Shown here: positions 1-60,384 of the stretch, piece by piece
Position numbering within the stretch: the first letter of the stretch is position 1
Layout: the number at the start of each line of letters is the position of its first letter
Source of the DNA: Klebsiella phage vB_KaeM_KaOmega
Strand: one strand, 5' to 3'
Length of the DNA: 64,000 bases
Sequence record: MN013077.1
Position numbers and translations under genes: made by a program
Notes under the pieces: generated by a model
Database searches by the model: none
What the model was told of the DNA's origin: nothing
What the model saw: the letters and a program-made list of their open reading frames with translations, nothing else

Positions 1-100
1 ACCGGGGCCGGAAGTGGAAGCAATGCCGGAGGGTGATCCGTGGCTTGAACCTGTACCGCCTGCCGATCATTTCAATGTTAACCCGGCACAAAAATAATTG

Positions 101-128
101 TTGACGTGTGGTTATAGGTCTGTATAAT
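101..128 (+). promoter_or_regulatory. early sigma70-like promoter: TTGACG, ~17-nt spacer, TATAAT; the -10 is flanked by the inverted repeat ATAGGTC/GACCTAT
   Basis: consensus hexamers seen directly; inverted repeat 114-120/132-138 brackets the -10. Confidence 0.6.
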
Positions 129-171
129 GCGGACCTATAGACAAACGAAACGCCACCAAACGAGGCACAAA

Positions 172-531
172 ATGAAATCATACGCTGAAGCTATCGCCAC
201 CCGTCCCGATCTCCTGGTAAAGGGTGATCTATTCCTTACGCTGGAGACTTTCGATTTTTCCCGTGATATCAACGGCAATACGATCAACAAATATCGCGCC
301 GCGCTTGTCTCAGGCGACGAACAAAGCGTTTTAAACTGGTACGCCGCCGCCAATGAGCTGGAGATCCTCAAATCACCTTATCGCCGTGAACAGTCCCATA
401 ATGACGGCGCAAGCGCCGCCCTTTATCGCTTGGGCTTGCTGGGGTACGAACTGGAATACATTACCACACAATACGGCCCCGGCAAGCGCCGCGCCTATCG
501 AATTTTCTACCGTGTAAAGAATGCAAAATAA
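172..531 (+). CDS. hypothetical early protein (119 aa)
   Basis: ORF track 127..531; internal ATG at 172 preceded by CGAGG RBS-like sequence and the CA-rich leader shared by neighbouring genes. Confidence 0.6.
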   Translation: MKSYAEAIATRPDLLVKGDLFLTLETFDFSRDINGNTINKYRAALVSGDEQSVLNWYAAANELEILKSPYRREQSHNDGASAALYRLGLLGYELEYITTQYGPGKRRAYRIFYRVKNAK

Positions 532-534
532 GTA

Positions 535-563
535 TTGACCAGGGGCCGGAAAGGCCCCATAAT
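535..563 (+). promoter_or_regulatory. early promoter TTGACC-N17-CATAAT with the hairpin GGGGCC-GGAAA-GGCCCC in the spacer
   Basis: seen in sequence; identical copy at 5943-5971. Confidence 0.6.
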
Positions 564-782
564 ACCAGACATACCCAAACAGGCATAAGAGGCCACAAAA
601 TGAAATCATCTTTACTTTTCGCCCTGGTTGACATCGTGATCGGCAACGGTTGCGGGCAACATACTTTCATAGCTAACCGCCCCTATCCGCTGAAGTCATT
701 GCAGGCCGACGCCCGCCTAACCGCCGGGCAGATCCGCCGCTACTTTCGTGAACCACACCCGGCAAAAAGTGCAAAATAATTG

Positions 783-812
783 TTGACGCCGGGCACCGTC
801 CCGGCTTACAAT
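783..812 (+). promoter_or_regulatory. early promoter TTGACG-N18-TACAAT with spacer hairpin CCGGG..CCCGG
   Basis: seen in sequence. Confidence 0.55.
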
Positions 813-841
813 GACCTCACACAAACAAACGAGGCTATAAC

Positions 842-1138
842 ATGCAACAGGCTAACACTCTTTTCATTCTGGCAAACGTAGCGGATCACGTCGTGGCTTC
901 ATTGTCTAACGTGGCGGGCACCGTCCAGATCATTTGCCGCCATATGGATGACAAAGCGCCGAACCGCTTACAAATCAACGTAGACCGCGCCGGGAAAGAA
1001 TTTGTGATCTCTTATGACGCTATCTACAACGGCAAGCGGATCACGCAAGCAAAAAGCCAGCCTATCCCCGGCGATTTTGTCCAGGACGTGATCGCCGATA
1101 TCGTAAACGACACGATCCCAGCGGGGGCCGCTGTATGA
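842..1138 (+). CDS. hypothetical early protein (98 aa)
   Basis: ORF track; ATG follows the CGAGG-containing leader. Confidence 0.6.
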   Translation: MQQANTLFILANVADHVVASLSNVAGTVQIICRHMDDKAPNRLQINVDRAGKEFVISYDAIYNGKRITQAKSQPIPGDFVQDVIADIVNDTIPAGAAV

Positions 1139-1290
1139 ATCCGCATAAACTTTTAATCACCAGCTACACCAGCAAGGCGGATCGCCGTGAAACTTTGGAC
1201 CGCTTAACCCGCTATTATCAGGAGGCCGGGCACAATAAGACAACCGCCCGCGCCCTGGCTAAAAAACGTTTACGTTTTGGTAAAAATTAG
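1135..1290 (+). CDS. hypothetical small protein (51 aa), ATGA-overlapped with the upstream gene
   Basis: manual ORF MNPHKLLITSYTSKADRRETLDRLTRYYQEAGHNKTTARALAKKRLRFGKN; fills the gap to the next promoter. Confidence 0.4.
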   Translation: MNPHKLLITSYTSKADRRETLDRLTRYYQEAGHNKTTARALAKKRLRFGKN

Positions 1291-1292
1291 CT

Positions 1293-1320
1293 TGACGCCC
1301 GGCCCGAAAGGGCCGATAAT
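1293..1320 (+). promoter_or_regulatory. early promoter TTGACG-N16/17-GATAAT with spacer hairpin GGCCCGAAAGGGCC
   Basis: seen in sequence. Confidence 0.6.
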
Positions 1321-1366
1321 CTCTCACATAGGGCGGGGAATGGTTCCCCGCATTATCTAAGAGGTT

Positions 1367-1525
1367 ATGAACATGTTTACTTTGATGACTTGGGAACACG
1401 AATCAAGCGCCCCGATCCGCCGGACCTTTGAAAACTTATGCGCTGCTTATCGCCTGGCGCAAGGCGGTTACTATAAAGCCCAAATCATCGACGAAAACAA
1501 TATTGTAATGTACGAATTTAAATGA
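1367..1525 (+). CDS. hypothetical small protein (52 aa)
   Basis: manual ORF MNMFTLMTWEHESS...; AAGAGG RBS-like sequence upstream; the 5'UTR holds the conserved hairpin TAGGGCGGGGAATGGTTCCCCGC. Confidence 0.45.
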   Translation: MNMFTLMTWEHESSAPIRRTFENLCAAYRLAQGGYYKAQIIDENNIVMYEFK

Positions 1526-1554
1526 TTGACATCCGGCCCGAAAGGGCCGATAAT
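1525..1554 (+). promoter_or_regulatory. early promoter TTGACA-N18-GATAAT with spacer hairpin GGCCCGAAAGGGCC
   Basis: seen in sequence. Confidence 0.6.
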
Positions 1555-1587
1555 GACCCCCACACCAAACAAAAGAGAGACCGTAAA

Positions 1588-1794
1588 ATGATTACTATGA
1601 TTCTGCAAAAGTCCCGCCTGATTGATGTTACCGTCACCCTGTCCGCTTGCGGTGAATCATCCCGCCGGGCCGATCATTACCAGGTTACCGCTGTAAGCGA
1701 CAACGGCGCGATCCTGCTGTCTGAGGCGACCCCCGCGCTACATGAGGCATTTTTGACTTATTCGAAGTGGAAAGGGCCGGAAGAAATAAAATAA
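1588..1794 (+). CDS. hypothetical early protein (68 aa)
   Basis: ORF track 1522..1794; ATG at 1588 follows the GAGAGACCGTAAAATG leader. Confidence 0.55.
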   Translation: MITMILQKSRLIDVTVTLSACGESSRRADHYQVTAVSDNGAILLSEATPALHEAFLTYSKWKGPEEIK

Positions 1795-1801
1795 AAAGTA
1801 G

Positions 1802-1830
1802 TTGACGGCGGGGCCGATAGGCCCCATAAT
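1802..1830 (+). promoter_or_regulatory. early promoter TTGACG-N17-CATAAT with spacer hairpin GGGGCCGATAGGCCCC
   Basis: seen in sequence. Confidence 0.6.
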
Positions 1831-1864
1831 ACCACCACACCAAACGAATAAAGAGAATCACAAA

Positions 1865-2119
1865 ATGTTAAAATTCATCAAATCACTTTTCACCCGTACC
1901 GCCCCGGCTTGCAAGTTGCCACCCCTGGAGGCGAAAGGTGTGATCGCTCGCAAAGTCTCAGAATTGTTTATCATTTCATTGGTTCACAATGGCGGCGACT
2001 GTTACGAAATCATCGAAATGGGCCGCTACACTAAAACAGGATCAAGCCGTGTCCGCTACGGTGAACACCGCGCCCGGAATCATTTTGATTCTGTATGCTG
2101 TATGGTCGGTGCAAAATAA
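1865..2119 (+). CDS. hypothetical early protein (84 aa)
   Basis: ORF track 1802..2119; ATG at 1865 after an A-rich leader. Confidence 0.55.
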   Translation: MLKFIKSLFTRTAPACKLPPLEAKGVIARKVSELFIISLVHNGGDCYEIIEMGRYTKTGSSRVRYGEHRARNHFDSVCCMVGAK

Positions 2120-2122
2120 ACC

Positions 2123-2151
2123 TTGACGGGGCCAACGTTAGGCCCCATAAT
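2123..2151 (+). promoter_or_regulatory. early promoter TTGACG-N17-CATAAT with spacer hairpin GGGGCC..GGCCCC
   Basis: seen in sequence. Confidence 0.6.
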
Positions 2152-2201
2152 GTATCACACAGGGCGACACAACGCCGCCCACAAACAAAAGGCAGACCGT
2201 T

Positions 2202-2564
2202 ATGATCTTCAATATCACCGAACTGAAAAAGAAAATGTCAGAGATGCTCTTCAATATTAGTGAATACGGGCACCCGTCCTACACTATCTTTGAGGCTGTT
2301 TTGTCAAAGTGCCAAAAGTTCGAATTAGTGATCGAGGTTGTACCGGGTCGCCTCCTGAAGTTGGGATCTGGCAAGTGGGGTTATAAACTTGATGCCTACG
2401 TCCAACAGTTAGCCGCCGGGGCCGATCCTATGGCAGATGATTATTGCGATGATGCCGACACTATCGCAAGCGTGGACGGTGAATATTGCCGGACAAAGGC
2501 GGCGCTTTTTGAAGCGATCAGCGAAGTTATCAACGAAGCAAAAGAAAACGTAATAACACGATAA
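2202..2564 (+). CDS. hypothetical early protein (120 aa)
   Basis: ORF track; AGGCAGACCGTTATG leader. Confidence 0.6.
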   Translation: MIFNITELKKKMSEMLFNISEYGHPSYTIFEAVLSKCQKFELVIEVVPGRLLKLGSGKWGYKLDAYVQQLAAGADPMADDYCDDADTIASVDGEYCRTKAALFEAISEVINEAKENVITR

Positions 2565-2578
2565 GCTAAAAAGAATTG

Positions 2579-2608
2579 TTGACGCCGGGAAGCGTTACGG
2601 GTTATACT
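2579..2608 (+). promoter_or_regulatory. early promoter TTGACG-N18-TATACT
   Basis: seen in sequence; spacer is GC-rich with an imperfect dyad. Confidence 0.5.
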
Positions 2609-2656
2609 CTTTTCATCGGGTCACAACAGACCACAACAAACAAAGAGAGAAACAAA

Positions 2657-2734
2657 ATGAGCGTAATCTTCCTAGTATCTGTTTTCGTAGCTATTGCATC
2701 TTCTACCGCAATTTGTATCAAACTGGGATACTAA
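2657..2734 (+). CDS. possible 25-aa hydrophobic micro-protein MSVIFLVSVFVAIASSTAICIKLGY
   Basis: manual ORF after promoter and AGAGAGA RBS-like sequence; ends 5 nt before the next ATG. Confidence 0.3.
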   Translation: MSVIFLVSVFVAIASSTAICIKLGY

Positions 2735-2738
2735 TTAA

Positions 2739-3131
2739 ATGACTACTTTCAACGTTTTACACTTAAACGCTTTTATCGCGGGTTACATTGAGGCAATGTT
2801 TTTTGCAGAGTCCGCCACCGATAGCGACGGCGAAGAGATCGAAAGTTTAGCCGGGTATGAGTTAAGCGCTGAAGCCCTGGACGCTGCCCGCATGGATTGT
2901 GCCCGCTTTATGGACGTTGCGCCTCTGTTACTCAAAGGGGCAATGCTGGCAGGGGTTGACTATGACCACACCCAGGCGGGCCGGGATCTATGGTTTAGCC
3001 GTCAAGGGCACGGCGTAGGATTCTGGGATCGCGGACTTGGGGCGATCGGTGATAAACTCCACGACGTGGCGAAGACTTTCGGATCAAAAAATCTGTTTAT
3101 CAATGATGCCGGATTTATTGAGGTAGAATAA
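2739..3131 (+). CDS. hypothetical early protein (130 aa)
   Basis: ORF track. Confidence 0.6.
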   Translation: MTTFNVLHLNAFIAGYIEAMFFAESATDSDGEEIESLAGYELSAEALDAARMDCARFMDVAPLLLKGAMLAGVDYDHTQAGRDLWFSRQGHGVGFWDRGLGAIGDKLHDVAKTFGSKNLFINDAGFIEVE

Positions 3132-3592
3132 TGAACCTTACAGATCTGAAGTATTACGACGAATTGACCCCAGCGGCGCAAGCTGAAGCCCGGCGCAACG
3201 TTGCCGCTAGTGTGCAGACTCACCACGGGCGGGAAATCGGAAAGGCGTTTTTTAAATTCCAGCGGGACCCAAACAAGGCGATCAATGACCCGCTGCACAT
3301 CCGCCGGATCATCAATGGCGGCGAAGCGTGGCGCAAGATCCGCCAGGAGGGCGACGCCTATCTAATCCGCTTTATCCGGTCCAATAAAGTGATCTTTACT
3401 GATTGCGGGGCGTATGTAGCGTATGTGGACGCCTTCACAATGTTTATTGATGGGTTGGAATACATACCCACAGCCGAACAGCAAAAGACTCTTAGAACGC
3501 CTTACATCGACGTTAACGGGCGGGGGCCTGCGTTTCATGATTGGCTATACCGTATGCACCACAAAATAAAGTTTTTCATGATCCGGGGTTGA
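3131..3592 (+). CDS. hypothetical early protein (153 aa)
   Basis: ORF track; ATGA overlap with the upstream gene. Confidence 0.6.
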   Translation: MNLTDLKYYDELTPAAQAEARRNVAASVQTHHGREIGKAFFKFQRDPNKAINDPLHIRRIINGGEAWRKIRQEGDAYLIRFIRSNKVIFTDCGAYVAYVDAFTMFIDGLEYIPTAEQQKTLRTPYIDVNGRGPAFHDWLYRMHHKIKFFMIRG

Positions 3593-3617
3593 CACCCGGC
3601 GGAATAGGGCCGATAAT
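3589..3617 (+). promoter_or_regulatory. early promoter TTGACA-N17-GATAAT, followed in the 5'UTR by the conserved hairpin TAGGGCGGGGAATGGTCCCCGG
   Basis: seen in sequence. Confidence 0.55.
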
Positions 3618-3670
3618 GTCTCTCATAGGGCGGGGAATGGTCCCCGGCCCAATGAACTGGAGTCAGTACA

Positions 3671-3922
3671 ATGGAAATCAAACACGTAATTTCTGCAAAC
3701 GTCGCCGTTTTAGGTTCTGTAAGTGAAACCCGTGTGAGTCTGGCGAAATGGTGCGCCGCTCAAACTTTCGGGAGTTACGGCGAAAAGGTAACAGAGGTTA
3801 AGCGCTTGCTTTCCTTTGGCAACGTGGGCCGCAAGTTGTTAACAGAGGATATCGCCCGCCGGGTTGAGATCCATTATTCACTTGCTCAAATCATCGTAAA
3901 AGAGATCGAAAGCGCAATTTAA
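3671..3922 (+). CDS. hypothetical early protein (83 aa)
   Basis: ORF track. Confidence 0.6.
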   Translation: MEIKHVISANVAVLGSVSETRVSLAKWCAAQTFGSYGEKVTEVKRLLSFGNVGRKLLTEDIARRVEIHYSLAQIIVKEIESAI

Positions 3923-3960
3923 CCCGGCCCGGCCCCGAAAGGGGCCAAAAGGAAAATAAA

Positions 3961-4140
3961 ATGACTTATTTCAGAAACTTAGAAAACGGGCATTATTACA
4001 CCATATCCGCCGGGCGGGTTCGTTGGTGGCTGGATCATTCTGCCGTGTGGGTCCGTAGTGAACATCTAAAGCCGTGTGACCTTGCCCACTATCCGTATAT
4101 TGGAACCACCACCGGACCAGGGGCCGAAAATGGGCGCTAA
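3961..4140 (+). CDS. hypothetical small protein (59 aa)
   Basis: manual ORF MTYFRNLENGHYYTISAGRVRWW...; follows the stand-alone hairpin GGCCCCGAAAGGGGCC and an AAAAGGAAAA RBS-like sequence. Confidence 0.4.
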   Translation: MTYFRNLENGHYYTISAGRVRWWLDHSAVWVRSEHLKPCDLAHYPYIGTTTGPGAENGR

Positions 4141-4354
4141 TACCCGCAACCGCTACGGCATAACGCGCCGTTTCGGGGTCTGCTATATGCTGGCAGATGA
4201 TCCACAATACAGGGCATTGCTGGAGGCTTACCAGGTCACCAAACTGGACGCCCAAAAGGGCCGGGCCGAACATGCCGCCCACGTAGCGAACATCAAAGCG
4301 TTACACGAATTTTTAGCCGTCGCTGAAAAGCGCCACGACATCCGCCACCGTTGA
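4130..4354 (+). CDS. hypothetical early protein (74 aa)
   Basis: ORF track 4076..4354; internal ATG at 4130. Confidence 0.5.
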   Translation: MGANTRNRYGITRRFGVCYMLADDPQYRALLEAYQVTKLDAQKGRAEHAAHVANIKALHEFLAVAEKRHDIRHR

Positions 4355-4365
4355 GAGTGCAAACC

Positions 4366-4560
4366 ATGATCACAGAATCCGAGATCCGCCAAACGTTAGC
4401 CGCCTTGCGTTACCTCCACGCCTTGCGCCGGGCAAGTGATCCGACTTATGCCGGGTCATGCCTGGCTAACGATGCCGAAAACGGGATCGCCACACTGAAA
4501 GAATTAAACGACCGCATGAGCGACAGCGACCGATCCGACTTCATAGGGGGCGAAATATGA
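4366..4560 (+). CDS. hypothetical early protein (64 aa)
   Basis: ORF track 4351..4560 (TTG); first ATG at 4366. Confidence 0.5.
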   Translation: MITESEIRQTLAALRYLHALRRASDPTYAGSCLANDAENGIATLKELNDRMSDSDRSDFIGGEI

Positions 4561-4757
4561 TCGACTTATCCGGCGTGAAGCCTGGCGATCTGGTCTGGGC
4601 CTTTGACTATCCGACCGATCCACCGTATGACGTTTGCAACGCTTGCAAACTGGAGTATTTGAACACCGGGAAAAATGAGTACCAGTTACGCCGCCCGGAT
4701 AACGGCGTGATCGTTTACTTTCGCTACATCGCACCAATTGAAGGGGCCAAACCATGA
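4557..4757 (+). CDS. hypothetical early protein (66 aa)
   Basis: ORF track; ATGA overlap. Confidence 0.55.
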   Translation: MIDLSGVKPGDLVWAFDYPTDPPYDVCNACKLEYLNTGKNEYQLRRPDNGVIVYFRYIAPIEGAKP

Positions 4758-5068
4758 TCGCCATTACGCCAACCGTTTTAGATTGGTATCGCCAACAGAT
4801 CGCGCCGCCGCTGGCTATCTTCAAACAGGCAGAAAGCAAACAGCGCCGGATCTCCATTCATGAGATCATCACCCTTAACGCCGGGGCGGTCCCGTTCAAT
4901 CCTGGGGCGGGTCGCAACATGGGCAACACGTTAGCGCTTTTGAGTTTACGCCGGAAACGGTCCGCCCTTACCTTGGATTCACTCCGCATGATGGGAGATC
5001 CGCACCGGGTAACAGGTCGCCGGATCGCCAGGGCCTGGGAACGGGCAAACGGTCGAAAGGTTGTATAA
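4754..5068 (+). CDS. hypothetical early protein (104 aa)
   Basis: ORF track; ATGA overlap. Confidence 0.55.
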   Translation: MIAITPTVLDWYRQQIAPPLAIFKQAESKQRRISIHEIITLNAGAVPFNPGAGRNMGNTLALLSLRRKRSALTLDSLRMMGDPHRVTGRRIARAWERANGRKVV

Positions 5069-5487
5069 AATAACAGTGTTTACAGGGGTTGAATTGTTCG
5101 CCCCTTTTTGTTATCCTTTTTTCATGCGATGGCACCTGATGCAGGGGGAGACAAACACCGGACCTGCCCGCTATTCAGGAAGGCGGACCGGACCTGGGTC
5201 TCTCCGGATAGATGAGAATGGTTATCATTCCCAATCAAATCAAATACATACTTTCAAACCGTTGTCAAATTTATTTCGTACTCCTGTATAAATGTACATG
5301 GTTCTAAAACGTCCTGAATCGCGTTTTAAGCCGTTTTCCCCTTACCCGGTATCCTACATCATAAAAATATAGATCTCTCGAAATCGGACTTTCGCACTTT
5401 TTGCCCTTGCAAACGTAAAAATTTTATGTTAGACCTGAAGGGCTGAAAGCCGGGTTTACGTTGACAAAACTTTACAATTCTCCCTAT

Positions 5488-5516
5488 TGCATCGATCCGC
5501 CATTGTGCTATTATTT
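5488..5516 (+). promoter_or_regulatory. putative promoter TTGCAT-N17-ATTATT ahead of the 5568 gene; its 5'UTR contains a TAGGGCGG... hairpin variant
   Basis: seen in sequence; weaker match. Confidence 0.4.
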
Positions 5517-5567
5517 ATCACGTAGGGCGGCAATGACGCGACGGCCCGCAGAGAGGAGACAGTAAAA

Positions 5568-5939
5568 ATGAACCTGACCAACTTCAACCGCTACTACATC
5601 CGCGACGAACAGGCAAACGCTTTTGGGTACGATCGTTCGTTCGAAATGCAACAGCACGTAGGCGGCGCAAAGTTACACGTTGAAACTGTTACCTTTGAAA
5701 ACTATTTTATGGCGACCTTTGACAATGGTTTACAGATCTCCATTGAGTACAAAGGCGGCGTGATGACTCTCGCCACTGAGGATAAATTCCGCAAAAAAGA
5801 TCTTTTGAATCATCCAGGTTTTGCCAGCAACAAAGAATTATTGATTAAAATTTATATCCGCTGGGTAGTGGGCCGCATCGCAACAGAAGAGCAGATCGCC
5901 GCCCTGGTGGATCTGGCTCTGAATCTGGATTTAAATTAA
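5568..5939 (+). CDS. hypothetical early protein (123 aa)
   Basis: ORF track; strong RBS-like sequence GAGAGGAGA. Confidence 0.65.
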   Translation: MNLTNFNRYYIRDEQANAFGYDRSFEMQQHVGGAKLHVETVTFENYFMATFDNGLQISIEYKGGVMTLATEDKFRKKDLLNHPGFASNKELLIKIYIRWVVGRIATEEQIAALVDLALNLDLN

Positions 5940-5942
5940 TAG

Positions 5943-5971
5943 TTGACAAGGGGCCGGAAAGGCCCCATAAT
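5943..5971 (+). promoter_or_regulatory. early promoter TTGACA-N17-CATAAT with spacer hairpin GGGGCCGGAAAGGCCCC
   Basis: seen in sequence; identical to the promoter at 535. Confidence 0.6.
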
Positions 5972-6016
5972 ACCCACTCAAGCAACAAACCACTAAGAAC
6001 ACTGGAGACCGTAAAA

Positions 6017-6577: not shown

Positions 6578-6607
6578 GAGGCCCGCCACCCCGGCGGGCT
6601 TTTTGTT
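6578..6607 (+). terminator. rho-independent terminator GCCCGCCACCCCGGCGGGC followed by TTTTGTT
   Basis: GC hairpin plus T tract. Confidence 0.7.
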
Positions 6608-6634
6608 GCATCCAGATCCGTGACCTGTTATAAT
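6606..6634 (+). promoter_or_regulatory. promoter TTGCAT-N17-TATAAT
   Basis: seen in sequence. Confidence 0.55.
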
Positions 6635-6680
6635 ACTTACTCACCCGGCAACCGGGCCAAACAACTGGAGACCGTAAAAC

Positions 6681-6881
6681 ATGACAACCGCCAACCGCCT
6701 GATCGATGTTCTGAATGATGCAAAGGCAAACCGTTTAGCCGTGGCAATCAAAGAAGAGGCAAACGGGCTGATCCTGGCAAGTGTTACCGATGGCTGTTAC
6801 ACTGAATCATTCCATGCTGATACACTGGAGTATCTCGCCCACAGATTAGAAATGATCGTTGACGATTGGCGGCTATTGTGA
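6681..6881 (+). CDS. hypothetical protein (66 aa)
   Basis: ORF track; CTGGAGACCGTAAAACATG leader. Confidence 0.6.
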   Translation: MTTANRLIDVLNDAKANRLAVAIKEEANGLILASVTDGCYTESFHADTLEYLAHRLEMIVDDWRLL

Positions 6882-6898
6882 TCCGACCAAACCAAACA

Positions 6899-6925
6899 GG
6901 CCCGGCATAGTCCGGGCTTTTTAGT
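6899..6925 (+). terminator. rho-independent terminator CCCGGCATAGTCCGGG followed by CTTTTTAG
   Basis: hairpin plus T tract; ends the early + strand block. Confidence 0.7.
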
Positions 6926-7099
6926 GCCTGCAATCCGGCCCGGTATTGGTCCGACTCCCCCAGCCTATAAGCCCTTATCATTTAACATTGTGGAAATCAA
7001 CATCTAATTTTATTCATAAAAACATGCATAATTGAATACAGGAGGCGCTAACCCACTAGCCAGGGTTGAGAGTAGCGGGCCGCATAGGGCCTTACAGCG

Positions 7100-7560
7100 C
7101 GTTTTAGCCCCTATTGACTTCTATCTGCAAACGTGTATCAGGCCACAACTGACTAAATCACCTTTTCTTTACATAACTTGACACTATTTATTCATTTATC
7201 TGCATAATGCGAGAATGATTATCATTTACAATCAATAACTTAACTTTTTATTGACTTCTGACAAAACACGGTTTTACGTTCCCACGGATCAAGGGAGGGC
7301 GCGCCGGAGGCGCGACCAATAGAAAACAGGTAACGAACCCTCCCCCGTTGCTAGCTCGCAACGGTTTAGGCTTACGTTCCCACGGTCAAGGGATGACCGC
7401 TATCACCTGTTTTCTATTGGTCATTTGTGATTGAAAATCACGTAAAGTCAAGTTTTATTTTACAAATGAGAGTTATTCTTATCTGCATAAAGATTGGTTT
7501 TATCTGCATAAATACGTAAACAGGCGGACCCGGTACGGGCCGGAGGGCCTGAGAGGAGAG
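7100..7560. repeat. iteron and palindrome cluster: TTATCTGCATAA x3 (7197, 7482, 7505); ATTGACTTCT x2; direct repeat ACGTTCCCACGG(A)TCAAGGGA x2, each partnered with one arm of the inverted repeat CCAATAGAAAACAGGT/ACCTGTTTTCTATTGG; palindromes GTGATTGAAAATCAC and CGTTGCTAGCTCGCAACG
   Basis: seen directly in sequence; non-coding. Confidence 0.6.
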
Positions 7561-7669
7561 GGCCTTTATTGCTCACAAAACAGCCGAAAGCGTAGCTTTT
7601 GCCTGGCAAAATTCACTCTTCGTGTCAAGCGAAAAATAATTTTTTTTCTTTTTTCGTAAACGATAATGA

Positions 7670-7810
7670 TTCTCATCCGAGAACCATTCTCAAAGGGCGA
7701 ATGCGAGTCATTCTCATTGGCATTCCACAACGTGAGTGAGACTCATTCTCATCTAGGCCACGGCTGGCGGGCCTCTCCACGTGTTGGGAATGATTATCAT
7801 TATCCCGAGT
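7670..7810. repeat. array of about five related sites (ATGATTCTCAT, CCATTCTCA, GTCATTCTCAT, CTCATTCTCAT, AATGATTATCATT); the perfect 13-bp palindrome AATGATTATCATT recurs at 7212 and a variant at 5222
   Basis: seen directly in sequence. Confidence 0.55.
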
Positions 7811-8410
7811 GCGTATAAGGTGTATTATGTTAAATGGGGAAATGTTGGGGGAGGCACACCACAGCCCGGCTGTCAATAAGAGAAGTGTAAAGATGGGCAA
7901 GATGGTAGACATTTTGTGACTTTGATCGCGTAAAGTTAGGGGCTACCGATCGGGATTCAAGATTGGGAGGGAGAGGCTAAGTAATTGATTATTAAGGATA
8001 TTTGGGAAAAATAACAGGTGCCCCTCCCCACCCCTGTTCGCCATGCCTGGCAGCTATATCCATACGCTGAGATATTTTTCTGGTTTCTGGGCAAGAAGGG
8101 CCACCCCTGATCGCGTTCTAAAAATTTTGGCGGGAGGGTATTTTGACATAAAAAGAGGGTACACCCAACGGGAGCGCCTCTTCAGGCGTCCCTTGATATT
8201 TGGGCAATGTGGGAATACAGACGGGTACGTCTCTGTGGGAACAGGTATACCCGGCGGGAGAGGGCCTCCCGGACGGGGTATGGCGCTCGCAGAGTTATCA
8301 ACAGGACAGAACACACGTTCGCCTCTTCAGGCAGTGGGTTAGACTCAAGTGGGACTCTTTAGGCCCTGTCAGGTCTACCAGTGTGGGAAACAAAATCCCG
8401 GAGGGAAGAT

Positions 8411-8434
8411 ACAAAAAAGGCCCGCAAAGGGCCT
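8411..8434 (-). terminator. minus-strand rho-independent terminator (GGCCCTTTGCGGGCC + TTTTTT on the minus strand)
   Basis: hairpin 8419-8433 preceded by an A tract on the plus strand; immediately downstream of the 8442 gene end. Confidence 0.65.
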
Positions 8435-8441
8435 ATGTGGA

Positions 8442-8771
8442 TCACCGGATAGGGAAGTGGGCTTCCTTCAGGTTGCAATTGACGTGTCTGCGGATAGCCA
8501 TCCACCCGATGTGACCAAATCCGTTCAGTTCTTCCTCGAACTGCTTCAGCTTCGCCCGGAGGACTGGGTACTCAACCCCAACCTGACCGGAAGATGTTCT
8601 GGTCATACATATAGTGTGGCACAGATCCATTAGGGCCTCGGACCTGCGCTTATTGTTCCGGGTAACCTGACGAATGGCGTTGGCCTTCCTCAGTTCTTTG
8701 ATATCTTTGTTCCAACGGTGGGCAATGGCAGGTCTACAAGGGCAGGTTTGACTCTTCAGGTGTGGTTTCAT
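8442..8771 (-). CDS. hypothetical basic Cys/His-rich protein (109 aa), monocistronic
   Basis: ORF track; RBS-like sequence AGAGGAACACCT; own promoter 8807-8835 and terminator 8411-8434. Confidence 0.55.
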   Translation of the reverse strand: MKPHLKSQTCPCRPAIAHRWNKDIKELRKANAIRQVTRNNKRRSEALMDLCHTICMTRTSSGQVGVEYPVLRAKLKQFEEELNGFGHIGWMAIRRHVNCNLKEAHFPIR

Positions 8772-8806
8772 AGGTGTTCCTCTTTGGCATGTTTGGAATA
8801 TGTGGG

Positions 8807-8835
8807 AAGTATACTGGTGTTTTGGGAAGGAGTCA
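8807..8835 (-). promoter_or_regulatory. minus-strand promoter TTGACT-N17-TATACT directly downstream of the hairpin GGGCCGAAAGGCCC; transcript would begin in a TTCCCACA motif
   Basis: seen in sequence. Confidence 0.5.
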
Positions 8836-8852
8836 AGGGCCTTTCGGCCCTT

Positions 8853-48899: not shown

Positions 48900-49076
48900 C
48901 TACCGGACGAACATTCGTCCTTGCTCGTAGTACCCGTTTTTAATACCACGGGGAGCAGACAGAGACTTTACCGCAGTACCTCCGCAATTGCAAGGGGCAG
49001 TTTCGCGCTCTGCAATCTTTCGATTCTTGTCAAATACTGCCCCGCACTCGGGGCATTTGTAAGAATACATCGGCAT
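48900..49076 (-). CDS. zinc-ribbon protein (58 aa; CPEC...CNC, FmdB-like)
   Basis: manual ORF MPMYSYKCPECGAVFDKNRKIAERETAPCNCGG...; TAATG-coupled to the MazG gene. Confidence 0.55.
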   Translation of the reverse strand: MPMYSYKCPECGAVFDKNRKIAERETAPCNCGGTAVKSLSAPRGIKNGYYEQGRMFVR

Positions 49077-49438
49077 TACTTGTCGGTCTCCAGGATCTTA
49101 CGCTCGGTCGACAGATCGCGGTTCTCTGCCAGTTCGTTATCGAACTTGCTCGGGTAGCGAGCCTTCAGCTTACGGATCACACGGTCCTGCTCGGCATCGA
49201 AGTCGGTGTTCAGGGCATCCATCGCCAGTGCCAGATACCACAGCAGGTCGCCCATTTCCTCTTTCAGGTTTGTGGTGTCCAGCGGTTTACCGTAGAACAG
49301 TGACTTCTTCAGAGCATCCTGAAACTCTGCCGCTTCCGTTACCAGTCCCATAGAGGCGTGAATCAGGCGCGGGCCAACCGCATCCAGATAAAAGTTATGG
49401 GACTCGGTACGAATGGCATCTTTAATAAACTGCGACAT
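49076..49438 (-). CDS. MazG-family nucleotide pyrophosphohydrolase (120 aa)
   Basis: GLVTEAAEF...EEMGDLLWYLA MazG motifs; ATG at 49438 with AAGGAGA RBS-like sequence. Confidence 0.75.
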   Translation of the reverse strand: MSQFIKDAIRTESHNFYLDAVGPRLIHASMGLVTEAAEFQDALKKSLFYGKPLDTTNLKEEMGDLLWYLALAMDALNTDFDAEQDRVIRKLKARYPSKFDNELAENRDLSTERKILETDK

Positions 49439-49492
49439 CAACTTCTCCTTTTCTGTTTCAGTGGGGCCATTATACATGACCCCGGCACACTG

Positions 49493-49933
49493 TCAACGAC
49501 TTTCGTAAAACTTTTTTGCTTGCTCACGACGTTTTTTGTCACGAGCCTCCTTCTCGATCCGGTTGGCCTCGTTCCATTTGCGCCAACGTTCACGTTGAAC
49601 GGAGTGGGCAACTTTGTAGACACGATTTTTCTCGTGCTGGTTCATCCAATCCAAATCGCCTTCTACAATGGCACATTCATGGAAACTATCCCAGTACAAG
49701 AAAGTCTTAGCCAAACGCTCGGTATCCAAGATAACATACTCTGCTAACTGGCAGCGCTTACGGTCGTCAGACGACAAATTGTCGTAGACGTCCAAGATCT
49801 TCTTCTCTCTGATCAAATCCATAATCAGTGTCACCGGGGGCCGGGTGGCCCGCCGTGGAGTGATATACTTATCCCATGCCCATACCAAGACCAGAAGAAT
49901 AAACAAACCTGTGCAGACCCATAACCCCGTCAT
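49493..49933 (-). CDS. membrane-anchored protein (146 aa) with N-terminal TM and basic C-terminus
   Basis: ORF track; ATGA overlap with the ligase gene. Confidence 0.55.
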   Translation of the reverse strand: MTGLWVCTGLFILLVLVWAWDKYITPRRATRPPVTLIMDLIREKKILDVYDNLSSDDRKRCQLAEYVILDTERLAKTFLYWDSFHECAIVEGDLDWMNQHEKNRVYKVAHSVQRERWRKWNEANRIEKEARDKKRREQAKKFYESR

Positions 49934-51297
49934 TCCAGATCCTCCGCAATTGCCCGCAGCAGATCCAGCAGGGAGTCAGACGCTTCGATCACTTCCTCCA
50001 GACTGTTCGCCTTAGTCTTGTCCATGCGAATCTCAACGAATTTGTAGTTGAGTCGCGGCAGGAACAGAGACTGAAGCTCTTTGGTCTCTGACTTGGTGAT
50101 GTCGTTAGCCTTGATCGTAATGATCTGGCCTATGAAGTATTCCGATGGCTTCTTGCGAAGAGCATCGGTAAGGCCGGAGCCAACGCCAACTTCCAGCAGT
50201 CCGTCACGAGTACGACAGATCAGTGCGCCGACGAGGCTCGGATCTTTCTTGTGCGGCGTTGTAGCCACGACTTCCAGATCAACATCGAACTCGTTCTTCA
50301 ACTTGACGCCTTTCTTCGTCTTGTTGTCTCCCCACGGCATCTTCGCCTCTTTGAGGACGGTGCCCTCTTTCTTCTGGAGACGCATCTCGATGAAGTGGTC
50401 GATCGCTTCCTTCAGGCTATTGATCTTACGCCCCGTAACCATACGGAAATTATAAGGCAGATCAACATCGCGGACGAGTAGGTCGGCATCAATTCGACGA
50501 TCTGCGTAGTCGGTCTTGGACTTACGATCGATATACTCTTCCATCGTCACGATGTCCCAGATCACCAAGCGTACACGATCACGATCGATGTCTTCAGGGT
50601 CTTGGTTAAGGTAACCGTTGCCTTCTGCACGTTCCATAACCCCATGCAGGCCATTTTCGTCAATAACCAAGCCTTCACCGTGCGCCACAAAAGCACCACG
50701 GCTTTCTGCCGCCTGCATGAGGCGTTGCTCAACATCCTCCGGAGCACGGAAGTTCAGTTCCTTCCCGGAGCGGGAACGGTAGATCACTTGCTCAGGCCAC
50801 ACCATGATGTCCGCATACAGACCGTCCATCTTCTCGTCGGAGAAAGCGCCCTTGTAGTTGAACTTACGCAGCAGATCCTCTTTGAACAGGGTGTAACTCT
50901 GATACGGCGGCTCCGTGATCAGATCTTTCCACACCTTGTTGGTCAGAGTCGTCTGAATGCCGCACTCCAGATCTCGGTTGATGATCTTCAGCAGGGTGCT
51001 AGGCTCTTCGCAGGTTTGCACCAGTTGTTCCATGTACGACTTGGCATCGTCGCCCGTATAAACTCGCCCAGCGATGTTCTTCACCAGCAGATCCACGCTT
51101 TCCGCCAGCGGAGTCAGTCCATTAGTGAAGAACGGAACCCTCAATCCACGGACGAAGAAATTCAGTTCTTTGGAGTAAGCGATCCGGAAGGATTGTTTAA
51201 GGCCCTCATTATCGGCATTGGCTCGCAGGATCGCTTCCTTCTCCTTCAGGGATCGGGTTGCAGACAACTCTGCGAGAATACTCGTTACGTTTGACAT
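49930..51297 (-). CDS. ATP-dependent DNA ligase
   Basis: KxDG adenylation motif (SDEKMDGLYAD) plus ligase OB-fold region; 455 aa. Confidence 0.85.
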   Translation of the reverse strand: MSNVTSILAELSATRSLKEKEAILRANADNEGLKQSFRIAYSKELNFFVRGLRVPFFTNGLTPLAESVDLLVKNIAGRVYTGDDAKSYMEQLVQTCEEPSTLLKIINRDLECGIQTTLTNKVWKDLITEPPYQSYTLFKEDLLRKFNYKGAFSDEKMDGLYADIMVWPEQVIYRSRSGKELNFRAPEDVEQRLMQAAESRGAFVAHGEGLVIDENGLHGVMERAEGNGYLNQDPEDIDRDRVRLVIWDIVTMEEYIDRKSKTDYADRRIDADLLVRDVDLPYNFRMVTGRKINSLKEAIDHFIEMRLQKKEGTVLKEAKMPWGDNKTKKGVKLKNEFDVDLEVVATTPHKKDPSLVGALICRTRDGLLEVGVGSGLTDALRKKPSEYFIGQIITIKANDITKSETKELQSLFLPRLNYKFVEIRMDKTKANSLEEVIEASDSLLDLLRAIAEDLE

Positions 51298-53662: not shown

Positions 53663-54026
53663 TCTATAACCCTCATACGGTTGTCTCGTTTCGATGTGTG
53701 CATTCTATGATCCAATGATCCTCTTGTCAATACTTTAAATTTAAAATTTTTCATGTAAGATCTATATAAAGATCCTAAAGATCAATAGAAATCTTCTATT
53801 GTTTTCTTGTTTTTAATAATTATTATGAATGAATATGAATAATAATTATAAGATCAATAATTTATGAGTGTAACGAATAAATTATAAGATTAATAAAACC
53901 GTAGCCCGGAGGGCGAGCGTAGCGAGGTTTATAGATTCTATTATTACTTCGTGTGTCTTTCGCGGCTACATGGTTGACAACCGATTTGGTTCGTGAAACA
54001 CTGAGCAGGGTTTCAAAGGAGGGTGT
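53663..54026. promoter_or_regulatory. AT-rich divergent control region with clustered GATC sites and repeated (A)TAAGATCAATA(A/G) motifs
   Basis: seen in sequence; candidate divergent promoters and/or replication origin. Confidence 0.5.
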
Positions 54027-54398
54027 GTGAAGGATTTTGTTGTTCCAGAGGGTTCTTTTGTAAGCCTCCCTACTCTGTGGGGCTTCGACTTGCCTGCCGA
54101 AGACTTCAAGAGGATGTTCTTGTTACATTTCCGATTCAAGTATTTCGCAGAGCAAGCGTTTCAGAGTGGTGAAGATGTAAGGCGCTGTTACTACGAGTCG
54201 CAGGAAACTCTGTGCGGCTTGTTTGGTATGTCTGAAACTTCAAGGTCAAAAGTCAGCAAGTTCCTCAAGCGGATGGAGGAGGCGGGGTATGTCTCAATCA
54301 TTCGTGAGAAAGTAATGCTTTATGGTTCATTCAAACCAAGGCATTACATTGTGGTTAACGACCCTGCACTTTTGAAAAGATATAACCTGGCCCCTTGA
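54027..54398 (+). CDS. winged-helix (HTH) DNA-binding protein (123 aa), GTG start
   Basis: ORF track; AAGGAGG RBS-like sequence; HTH-like LCGLFGMSETSRSKVSKFLKRMEEAGYV. Confidence 0.6.
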   Translation: MKDFVVPEGSFVSLPTLWGFDLPAEDFKRMFLLHFRFKYFAEQAFQSGEDVRRCYYESQETLCGLFGMSETSRSKVSKFLKRMEEAGYVSIIREKVMLYGSFKPRHYIVVNDPALLKRYNLAP

Positions 54399-60306: not shown

Positions 60307-60384
60307 GCACCTATCGTCTAATTGGAATAGGACACCGACCTTTCACGTCGGCAAATACGGGTTCGAGTCCCGTTGGGTGTACCA
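60307..60384 (+). tRNA. tRNA-Glu (anticodon TTC)
   Basis: anticodon arm CCGACCTTTCACGTCGG; T-loop GGTTCGAGTCC; CCA. Confidence 0.7.

Follow-up and report, generated by a model that had tools for sequence, protein, structure and literature searches.

A conserved gene-free stretch in the early region of Certrevirus phages with a covariation-supported folded element and candidate iron boxes

Results

A conserved gene-free stretch between convergent operons

We analyzed a 64,000-nucleotide stretch of the Klebsiella phage vB_KaeM_KaOmega (record MN013077.1; hereafter the window), which belongs to a Certrevirus myophage of the phiTE/CR3/CB7 kind, and focused on a 1.5-kb gene-free region at positions 6930-8440 that we call the hub. 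An earlier note, made from the sequence alone, had placed this region between convergent operons, and both borders agree: a plus-strand hairpin with a T-run ends the early operon on the left, and a minus-strand terminator ends the operon on the right (Table 1). The left terminator aligns to the terminator portion of an Rfam leader model. The note had also seen no credible reading frame here. All 12 open reading frames of at least 44 amino acids are broken by stops, frameshifts or lost starts in some of nine relatives, which rules out protein-coding genes within the hub. Most GenBank records annotate nothing in it, and one carries tiny automatic open reading frames.

Megablast with 6600-8800 returned 25 phage records, from Certrevirus-like myophages and the more distant Vequintavirinae phage Salmonella SSBI34. 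Their hosts include Pectobacterium, Cronobacter, Enterobacter and Pantoea, and phiTE, CB7, CR3, CR8, CR9 and PBES 02 are among them. The hub is kept in 25 of the 25. IMG/VR added two contigs, and a metagenome scan gave 26 loci, three of which (L027, L035, L042) were confirmed by BLAST against the hub. Identity to the window over about 1.5 kb is 74-90% in phage genomes and 66% in the metagenomic contig L042, with invariant or near-invariant runs of up to 30-50 nt. In F1M1E, CR3, CR8 and CR9, homology runs from about 6935 to a point between about 8280 and about 8417, and the genes outside differ; flanking genes are swapped between relatives while the hub stays. SSBI34 is collinear with the hub over modules A to H, nearly its whole length, and the phiTE counterpart lies at 48,911-50,377. 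The comparative genomics that the note had proposed as a check thus finds the region conserved and non-coding across relatives, and the hub ranks with the best-conserved DNA of the Certrevirus early region.

Every repeat, palindrome and A/T tract described earlier was recovered at its place. TTATCTGCATAA occurs three times (7196-7207, 7479-7490, 7500-7511), (T)ATTGACTTCT twice (7112-7122, 7249-7259) and ACGTTCCCACGG(A)TCAAGGGA twice (7276-7296, 7374-7393). Short palindromes lie at 7427-7441, 7346-7363 and 7299-7315, and 22 of the 23 bases of the tract at 7632-7654 are A or T. The inverted repeat, first put at 16 bp, is a longer, perfect 18-mer, with GACCAATAGAAAACAGGT at 7314-7331 opposed to ACCTGTTTTCTATTGGTC at 7405-7422. 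Motifs of the hub are enriched 10-40-fold over the rest of the 64 kb: under an even spread, 0.07 copies of ATCTGCATAA would be expected where all three window copies fall, and the hub also holds more than its share of the window copies of TTGACTTCT (two of two; 0.05 expected), TTCCCAC (five of 17; 0.40 expected) and CATTCTCA (three of five; 0.12 expected). GATC, with about 420 copies in the 64 kb against about 250 expected, is rarer in the hub (five against about 10 expected). The likeness of the GTTCCC...GGGA repeats to type I-E CRISPR repeats, which would suggest a Racr mimic, is presumably superficial.

A covariation-supported folded element

The nested inverted repeats form a folded structure supported by covariation. 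This element, module C, takes in both ACGTTCCCACGG(A)TCAAGGGA repeats and is closed by the 18-bp stem of the perfect inverted repeat. Within it, 7332-7337 pairs with 7372-7378 as a junction helix, and hairpins form at 7279-7296 and 7299-7315 on the 5' side and at 7346-7363 and 7383-7399. In the alignment of 15 non-identical sequences, 99% of pair cells are standard pairs. Double-sided changes occur at seven pairs (24 cells), compared with 3.9 +/- 1.1 in shuffles, of which three in 500 reach seven; a control with slid partners gave zero to one such pair. The closing stem appears as CAGG/CCTG, as GGG/CCC with a matching one-base deletion in each arm, or as GGGG/CCCC, and a hairpin appears as CGTTGC/GCAACG, TTTTGC/GCAAAA, CTTTGC/GCAAAG or CGGCGC/GCGCCG.

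For the window copy, the folding energy is -68.3 kcal/mol (z -6.4) as the plus strand and -74.5 kcal/mol (z -6.3) as the minus strand. In a sliding consensus-fold scan, module C is the strongest window of the hub, and about 50 nt of it are invariant even in SSBI34. The second-best signal, at 7005-7114 (z -4.7 on both strands), belongs to module A, which has long runs invariant in 10 phages and matches weakly in Henunavirus and SSBI34.

Searches for a known identity of the element gave little. Rfam 15, including ToxI and tRNA, yielded no gathering-score match in the hub, and at E values up to 5 only terminator look-alikes appeared, all of them outside it. ARAGORN called nothing in the hub down to 80% of its thresholds and only noise with relaxed ones. 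A host origin of module C was set aside after a 20-mer scan of the genomes of 185,579 bacterial and archaeal species, where the single match lay in an unrelated metagenome-assembled genome and was taken as chance. Complementarity of at least 12 nt to sequence elsewhere in the window, sought as a sign of small-RNA targets of the hub, was at chance level (16 versus 11.5 expected).

The pseudo-ToxI locus of phiTE, the one characterised non-coding RNA locus of the genus, was also considered and rejected as the identity of the hub. It lies at phiTE 106,714-106,772, between phiTE_202 and 203.

Promoter-like elements and candidate iron boxes

Three promoter-like elements surround module C. The -10 of the first, P1, falls within copy 1 of TTATCTGCATAA; the other two copies hold CATAAA at this place. 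P1, read from the sequence and also picked up by a promoter search, is near-invariant in 10 phages. The second, at 7251-7279, has a defective -10 and resembles the real minus-strand promoter at 8836-8808 (TTGACT-17-TATACT-TCCCACA); its -35 is not conserved in SSBI34. The third points leftward into module C, with TTGACT at 7451-7446, a hairpin in its spacer and a weak -10 (ACAAAT/TCAAAT). The hairpin, H4, is wholly different in sequence between phages yet present in nearly all of them, its stems being GTGAT/ATCAC, AGGC/GCCT, GAAGGT/ACCTTC, GTGCG/CGCAC and TGAGAT/ATCTCA.

The early promoters of the window are arranged in the same way. About a dozen early sigma-70 promoters on the plus strand at 100-6000 share an unusual layout, in which an A-rich run of the AAAATAA type precedes TTGAC(G/A) by a few bases, the 17-nt spacer holds a GC-rich hairpin with a GNRA-like loop, and the -10 is (C/G)ATAAT. 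The layout agrees with the genus consensus reported for CB7 (PMC7344957). A T4-type late promoter, TATAAATA, occurs nowhere in the window.

Two sites in the hub resemble the binding box of the host iron regulator Fur. We scored them with a matrix of 11 published Gram-negative boxes (PMC10665472), which themselves score 14.9-28.5 bits. Box 1, with 16 of 19 consensus bases and 24.2 bits, is the best site in the 64 kb; its position is occupied in 11 of 11 hubs, SSBI34 included. Box 2 is the second best, and its position scores 16.5-23 bits in all Certrevirus hubs and retains 14 of 19 consensus bases in SSBI34. Matches of at least 16 of 19 bases to the consensus GATAATGATAATCATTATC occur in the 64 kb only at these two sites. 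Box 2 lies 10 nt upstream of TATAAG/TATTAT, which are predicted -10-like hexamers. By score and conservation of position, both are canonical-type iron boxes, which Fur may bind.

Further sites of this type accompany them. Each examined hub has two to five sites of at least 14 bits, and three to seven sites match at least 13 of 19 bases, compared with 0.15-0.5 in shuffles. The unit of box plus ATCTGCA in module D is present in one to four copies among relatives, with the boxes abutting -10-like CATAA(A/T) motifs. The additional units found in phiTE, CB7 and PcCB7V have GATAATGAGAATCATTATC/T (17-18 of 19 bases, 24-26 bits), and PcCB7V carries GATAATGAGAATCATTATT, which is listed as a known Gram-negative iron box. 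A search for Fur homologues in Certrevirus and T5-like phages found none, so a Fur-type binder would have to come from the host.

A second gene-free promoter stretch, about 500 bp at 5069-5567 in the early plus-strand block, contains the iron-box match that ranks third in the window (5214-5232, 19 bits). It also has a near-LexA box (CTGTATAAATGTACAT at about 5284) and the promoter for the gene at 5568.

Sites matching the consensus of the host protein IHF are likewise concentrated in the hub, which holds two of the six window matches (0.14 expected). One adjoins box 1, and its core, ATCAATAACTTAA, is invariant in the 10-phage alignment; the second starts at 7978. Strict DnaA boxes number zero in the hub, the relaxed form TTWTNNACA matches twice, and LexA boxes are absent from it.

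Table 1. Positions of the main features in and around the hub (window coordinates; a dot marks features given without strand)
Feature	Position	Strand	Description
Left-border intrinsic terminator	6900-6925	+	GCCCGG-CATAGT-CCGGGC then TTTTT; ends plus-strand early operon
Module A	6985-7110	+	Block TTGTGGAAATCAAC...GCATAATTGAATA, -10-like CATAAT 7027-7032, then conserved folded segment ending GCGCGTTTT
P1, promoter-like	7178-7208	+	TTGACA 7178-7183, 19-nt spacer, CATAAT 7203-7208
Fur (iron) box 1, candidate	7211-7229	.	GAGAATGATTATCATTTAC; starts 2 nt after P1 -10
IHF-consensus site	7230-7242	+	AATCAATAACTTA, matches WATCAANNNNTTR
Promoter-like element	7251-7279	+	TTGACT, 17 nt, TTACGT; small hairpin in spacer
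Structured element (module C)	7276-7425	.	150-nt three-way junction, 47 pairs (RNAalifold)
Early-promoter-like element, leftward into module C	7427-7475	-	Hairpin H4 7427-7441, AAAGTCAAG 7444-7452, upstream AAAATAAAAC
Module D	7464-7532	+	Fur-like box 7465-7483 fused to TTATCTGCATAA copy 2, then copy 3, near-invariant TACGTAAACAGGCGGACCCG 7513-7532
Palindrome, conserved motif and A/T tract	7597-7654	.	TTTTGCCTGGCAAAA 7597-7611, GTGTCAAGCG 7622-7631, tract 7632-7654
Four CATTCTCAT-type palindromic boxes	7656/7662-7677, 7679-7692, 7699-7726, 7734-7753	.	Repeat family D1
Fur (iron) box 2, candidate	7786-7804	.	GGGAATGATTATCATTATC; 17/19 consensus bases, 22.8 bits
Invariant block	7807-7838	.	AGTGCGTATAAGGTGTATTATGTTAAATGG, -10-like hexamers on both strands
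Right arm	7840-8417	.	Short hairpins of variable sequence interleaved with conserved blocks
Right-border intrinsic terminator	8434-8418	-	AGGCCCTTTGCGGGCCT then TTTTTT; ends minus-strand operon

A central cassette shared with T5-like phages

Between module D and box 2 lie a palindrome, a conserved motif and the A/T tract, all conserved in the alignment, followed by four CATTCTCAT-type palindromic boxes. By A/T content, the tract ranks in the top six 30-mers of the window, though not first. A sensitive BLAST of the hub matched 7698-7756 to Vibrio and Klebsiella T5-like siphophages (E 3e-7 against 2.3 Gb), and the matches sit in gene-free regions of these phages, adjoining paired DnaA boxes. An nhmmer profile of 7600-7845 matched the T5-like loci of a Klebsiella phage (L011, 2412-2556; E 1.3e-10), a Vibrio phage (L012, 2462-2559; E 2e-14) and T5 itself (L014, 5031-5156; E 4e-7). 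The shared part is collinear over about 150 bp (7607-7756) and reads AAAATTCGCT..GTGTCAAG, TAAAyGATArTG.TTCTCA, AATGCGA.TCATTCTCATT.GCATTCC and TGAGA.TCATTCTCAT; its left portion (7597-7654) aligns to the spacer/IRC' part of the T5-like loci.

The aligned part of T5 is annotated as direct repeat C and palindromes E-I of the untranslated Repeat Region 3, next to the calculated shear point of first-step transfer, and the palindromic boxes of the direct repeat C/E type (AAATGAGAATCATT...) are present in the hub. Judged by sequence, the central cassette (GTGTCAAG, the A/T tract and four or five boxes) is related to the core of the T5-family Repeat Region 3. The remaining 1.3 kb of the hub, module C included, has no counterpart in T5-like loci: nhmmer matched no other hub block there, and no repeat like the DRD array GTGCAAATCCGAC of T5 is seen in the hub. 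The T5-like loci do hold ATTATGAGTTAAATGGGGG, which is similar to the invariant block at 7807-7838. That block is identical in all Certrevirus sequences except for the variable base 7837, and Henunavirus Erwinia phages carry GTGCGTATAAGGTGTATTATGTTAAATG of it within a 1.36-kb gene-free stretch of their own, with otherwise no detectable DNA similarity to the hub there.

Davison's comparison of the T5-like regions treats the conserved repeats as likely candidates for the injection stop signal, with a function that cannot be guessed, and the preprint mentions no Fur, LexA or iron (10.1101/866236). A literature search found no paper linking T5 with Fur boxes. Each of the T5-like regions has three sites that resemble iron boxes (15-22 bits); those of T5 are the copies of "direct repeat C". 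Because iron-box-like, LexA and DnaA sites occur together in them, these regions look like clusters of host-regulator sites.

Side by side with the iron-box-like sites, which in T5 fall within L014 4960-5150, the iss regions carry a LexA (SOS) box. It matches 19 of 20 bases in T5 (L014 4831-4850, "palindrome D") and in the Klebsiella phage (L011 2358), and 17 of 20 in the Vibrio phage (L012 2683).

The hub might accordingly be read as a platform for host proteins at the DNA level, the equivalent of the T5 Repeat Region 3/iss core, that recruits Fur, IHF or others. Such a platform could sequester Fur, or it could anchor, compact or pause the genome during entry or replication, and an RNA product would be unnecessary. 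The significant, collinear similarity speaks for this reading, as do the same genomic setting in both families, HNH insertions in both (10.1101/866236), and the iron-box-like sites, LexA box and published DnaA boxes of the T5-like regions. Against it, Certrevirus genomes are circularly permuted and headful-packaged (PMC7344957), and because no fixed segment enters first, a signal for two-step transfer makes no sense in them. Paired DnaA boxes and a LexA box are also missing from the hub, no repeat like the DRD array is seen in it, and the shared part is only about 150 bp of 1.5 kb. We consider a purely DNA-level platform quite unlikely.

Replication and packaging

The earlier note had counted a replication origin among its readings. 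Here, the boxes at 7656-7805 would serve as initiator-binding iterons beside an A/T unwinding element (7632-7654) and an IHF bend, and the promoters of the hub would give an activating or priming transcript like those of T4 oriF/oriG or like ColE1 RNA II/RNA I. In this scheme, the folded element might act as an antisense controller or as a signal for single-strand initiation. Repeated palindromic boxes do adjoin the 23-bp A/T tract, IHF-consensus sites are present, and promoter-like elements converge from both sides on a very stable structure, which single-stranded DNA forms just as well. The stretch is, moreover, strongly conserved and non-coding, and the copy number of its box module varies among relatives.

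Other features argue against an origin. Strict DnaA boxes are missing from the hub, its neighbours are all of unknown function and include no initiator-like gene, and it sits where transcription converges, not where it diverges. The description of the repeats as "iterons" does not hold in the sense of regularly phased direct repeats: the boxes are palindromic and irregularly spaced, at 17, 24 and 35 bp, with the next Fur box about 50 bp on. In T5, the homologous cassette is in the terminal repeat and the origins are near the genome centre (10.1101/866236). The window also offers a more classical candidate at 53.7-53.9 kb. Weighing these points, we hold an origin in the hub to be unlikely. GC skew follows gene orientation and is uninformative on the origin, and a literature search found no origin mapping for Vequintavirinae.

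The other candidate lies in a divergent intergenic stretch at 53663-54398, which is the most A/T-rich of the 64 kb (at 53.7-53.9 kb) and holds repeated GATC-containing TATAAGATC(A/T)ATAA. The open reading frame beside it, at 54027-54398, encodes a 123-amino-acid winged-helix protein with a sub-threshold Pfam helix-turn-helix match and a weak match to the PHROG "replication initiation protein" (E 4.6e-4). By classical criteria, this stretch is a better origin candidate than the hub.

A packaging recognition site, whether pac, cos or a terminal-repeat boundary, had been suggested as well, and the dense dyads and repeats would suit one. The GenBank record of Cronobacter phage PBES 02 starts at window position 7406, in the right arm of the inverted repeat, and that of SSBI34 ends about 0.8 kb past the hub match. 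These data meet contrary results from relatives: DNA of CB7 and phiTE is circularly permuted, without fixed ends, BAL-31-sensitive fragments or a coverage peak, and phiTE is a generalised transducer (PMC7344957). Where a permuted genome's record starts is arbitrary, that of CB7 having been set to match CR3, and no terminase gene is near the hub. The suggestion is therefore not borne out, and a packaging role appears exceedingly improbable. The PBES 02 record start at 7406 is probably arbitrary, or else the assembly broke at the repeat.

The right arm and neighbouring genes

Right of the invariant block, the hub alternates between conserved and variable sequence. The block at 7884-7918 is near-invariant; GATATTTGGG is present in two copies and TGTGGGAA in three, at 8208, 8234 and 8382. 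CTCTT(C/T)AGG hairpins are found at 8169-8190, 8314-8331 and 8346-8363, and hairpin stems of the arm co-vary (for example, GCGCC/GGCGT versus GAGCC/GGCTC), with a weak consensus-fold signal overall. In phiTE and CB7, an HNH endonuclease gene stands in place of 8087-8310 (L001 4787-5287; L003 4810-5295), in parallel with T5, where an HNH gene has entered between Repeat Regions 1 and 2 (10.1101/866236).

Part of the right arm may be decayed cassette material, which raises the question of whether the hub is largely decayed sequence. In this case, it would consist of dead fragments of promoters, 5' untranslated regions, gene starts and tRNAs left by recombination of early cassettes, in which only incidental terminators and promoters still work. 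The right-arm motifs TGTGGGAA, CTCTTCAGG and GGCAGGTCTAC are found again at 8743-8836, where the neighbouring minus-strand gene has its promoter and first codons, several promoter-like elements have lost their -10, 16 nt at 8158-8173 are identical to the 3' end of tRNA-Glu, and phiTE and CB7 tolerate the HNH gene. Decay does not account for a hub that is retained while functional flanking genes are exchanged, for near-invariant blocks of 30-50 nt, one of them common to another genus and another invariant even in SSBI34, for compensatory substitutions that keep helices, or for iron boxes conserved in position. It fits at most parts of 7840-8417, and for the hub at large we judge it very unlikely.

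The exact 16-nt identity of 8158-8173 (minus strand) is to the T-stem/acceptor 3' end of tRNA-Glu at 60368-60383, with about 0.05 such identities expected by chance; the 18 tRNA genes of the window lie at 58.7-62.3 kb. A tRNA relic was rejected; ARAGORN calls no tRNA or pseudo-tRNA there. Because the identity is not conserved in relatives, we take it as a local recombination scar or chance.

Proteins encoded on the flanks fall into PHROG families without known function. The first gene right of the hub, at 8442-8771 on the minus strand, encodes 109 amino acids with a CPC motif; it is missing from most relatives and matches nothing in Pfam or PHROG.

Discussion

The hub proves more structured and better conserved than could be seen from the single sequence. 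We tentatively favour reading it as a conserved, gene-free center of cis-regulation and non-coding RNA that contains a new structured element and whose transcription host factors, probably Fur and IHF, would gate. Of the phrases in the earlier note, "transcriptional switch region" comes closest to this reading, together with "may also encode small RNAs": the covariation-supported structure and the promoter/operator-like layout of the repeats favour them, and the function itself we infer. Sigma-70-type promoter elements would face inward from both sides of the hub. Host Fur with Fe2+ would occupy box 1, just downstream of the P1 -10, and box 2, just upstream of the invariant block, and would probably also bind the related CATTCTCAT palindromes, while IHF would bend the DNA at 7230-7242. 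From such occupancy by Fur and IHF it would follow that transcription of a non-coding RNA from the hub is gated by the iron status of the host. The 150-nt three-way junction may be one product, or part of one, and its 18-bp stem could serve as a processing site for RNase III.

Several observations weigh against this proposal. The folded element is ambiguous both in strand and in acting as RNA or DNA: it folds equally well as single-stranded DNA (-41 kcal/mol, z -6.9), its minus strand is more stable by 3-7 kcal/mol in 15 of 15 sequences, a few helix extensions need G-U pairs on the plus strand, and nearly all changes lead from one Watson-Crick pair to another, with one G-U intermediate. No clear terminator was found in the flanks of module C. 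The 19-nt spacer of P1 is longer than optimal, and several promoter-like elements have a poor -10 (TTACGT, ACAAAT). Because a generic scan for promoters gives no excess relative to shuffles (4 versus 3.3), promoter activity in the hub is likewise something that we infer. The four CATTCTCAT-type boxes are a symmetric variant (GAGAnTCATTCTC), and of them only that at 7656 reaches the iron-box range (15.3 bits), the other three being at 10-12 bits. In all, four boxes fall below this range and may bind another protein. The homologous T5 cassette is thought to act at the DNA level, and a literature search found no transcriptome for any Vequintavirinae phage and no binding data for this phage group.

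A broader combination of these ideas is also conceivable, though as a whole it is speculative and we deem it unlikely. The CATTCTCAT/iron-box cassette, common to T5-like siphophages and Vequintavirinae myophages, would be a mobile non-coding module that recruits host Fur. The conserved T5 iss core would be a platform for host regulators (Fur together with LexA and DnaA) and not a signal specific to transfer, and in Certrevirus the cassette would be coupled to a new class of 150-nt three-way-junction RNA with a closing stem of a size suited to RNase III. By means of the cassette, virulent phages would read the iron status of the host or sequester Fur.

The hub is unannotated in most inspected GenBank records and absent from the genus papers that we searched, and so appears to be undescribed. 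The phages concerned, of Pectobacterium, Cronobacter and Enterobacter, are relevant to biocontrol. Two iron-box matches at conserved positions, an IHF-consensus site and a folded element provide testable handles. If gating by Fur is real, a strictly lytic phage would have wired host iron sensing into its early programme. Similarity to the T5 core in phages without terminal repeats or two-step transfer also calls into question how specifically the T5 repeats serve injection arrest.

Among known systems, the Fur-repressed promoters of Enterobacterales, such as the aerobactin iucA operator and ryhB, resemble the hub in several respects. A box that overlaps or abuts the -10 is in the usual position for repression by Fur, and the boxes of the hub overlap or abut -10-like hexamers. 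Its 19-bp matches score within the published range, and no open reading frame follows, as in a small-RNA gene. The hub differs in having several boxes, half of them the symmetric variant GAGAnTCATTCTC, which scores below real boxes, and it has neither sequence similarity to RyhB nor any Rfam match. The pseudo-ToxI locus of phiTE is alike in being a non-coding, repetitive locus of the same genus with changes in repeat-unit copy number; it differs in being a separate locus, and the hub shows no similarity to ToxI.

Iteron and R-loop origins (lambda ori; T4 oriF/oriG; ColE1) share with the hub site-like boxes by an A/T tract, an IHF site and promoters nearby, and its convergent promoter-like elements around a stable stem-loop are reminiscent of antisense control. 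They differ from the hub, which has no initiator gene in cis and no DnaA boxes, whose boxes are palindromic and irregular, and which marks a point of convergence.

T5 Repeat Region 3 offers a further comparison. It lies in the long terminal repeat at the boundary of first-step transfer, whereas the Certrevirus hub does not, the genomes of CB7 and phiTE having no fixed ends (PMC7344957). The T5 region has a LexA box and DnaA pairs (TTWTNCACA 3 bp apart in IRD'/IRC'), which the hub lacks; the place of the pairs is taken in the hub by the A/T tract. Yet both are gene-free stretches of 1.2-1.6 kb, dense in repeats and palindromes, at places where early transcription units converge. Both exceed the flanking genes in conservation, have iron-box-like sites and have taken up HNH genes in some members (10.1101/866236). 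The setting, too, is the same in the two families: an operon of small early genes, a terminator, a gene-free stretch of repeats and an operon in the opposite orientation.

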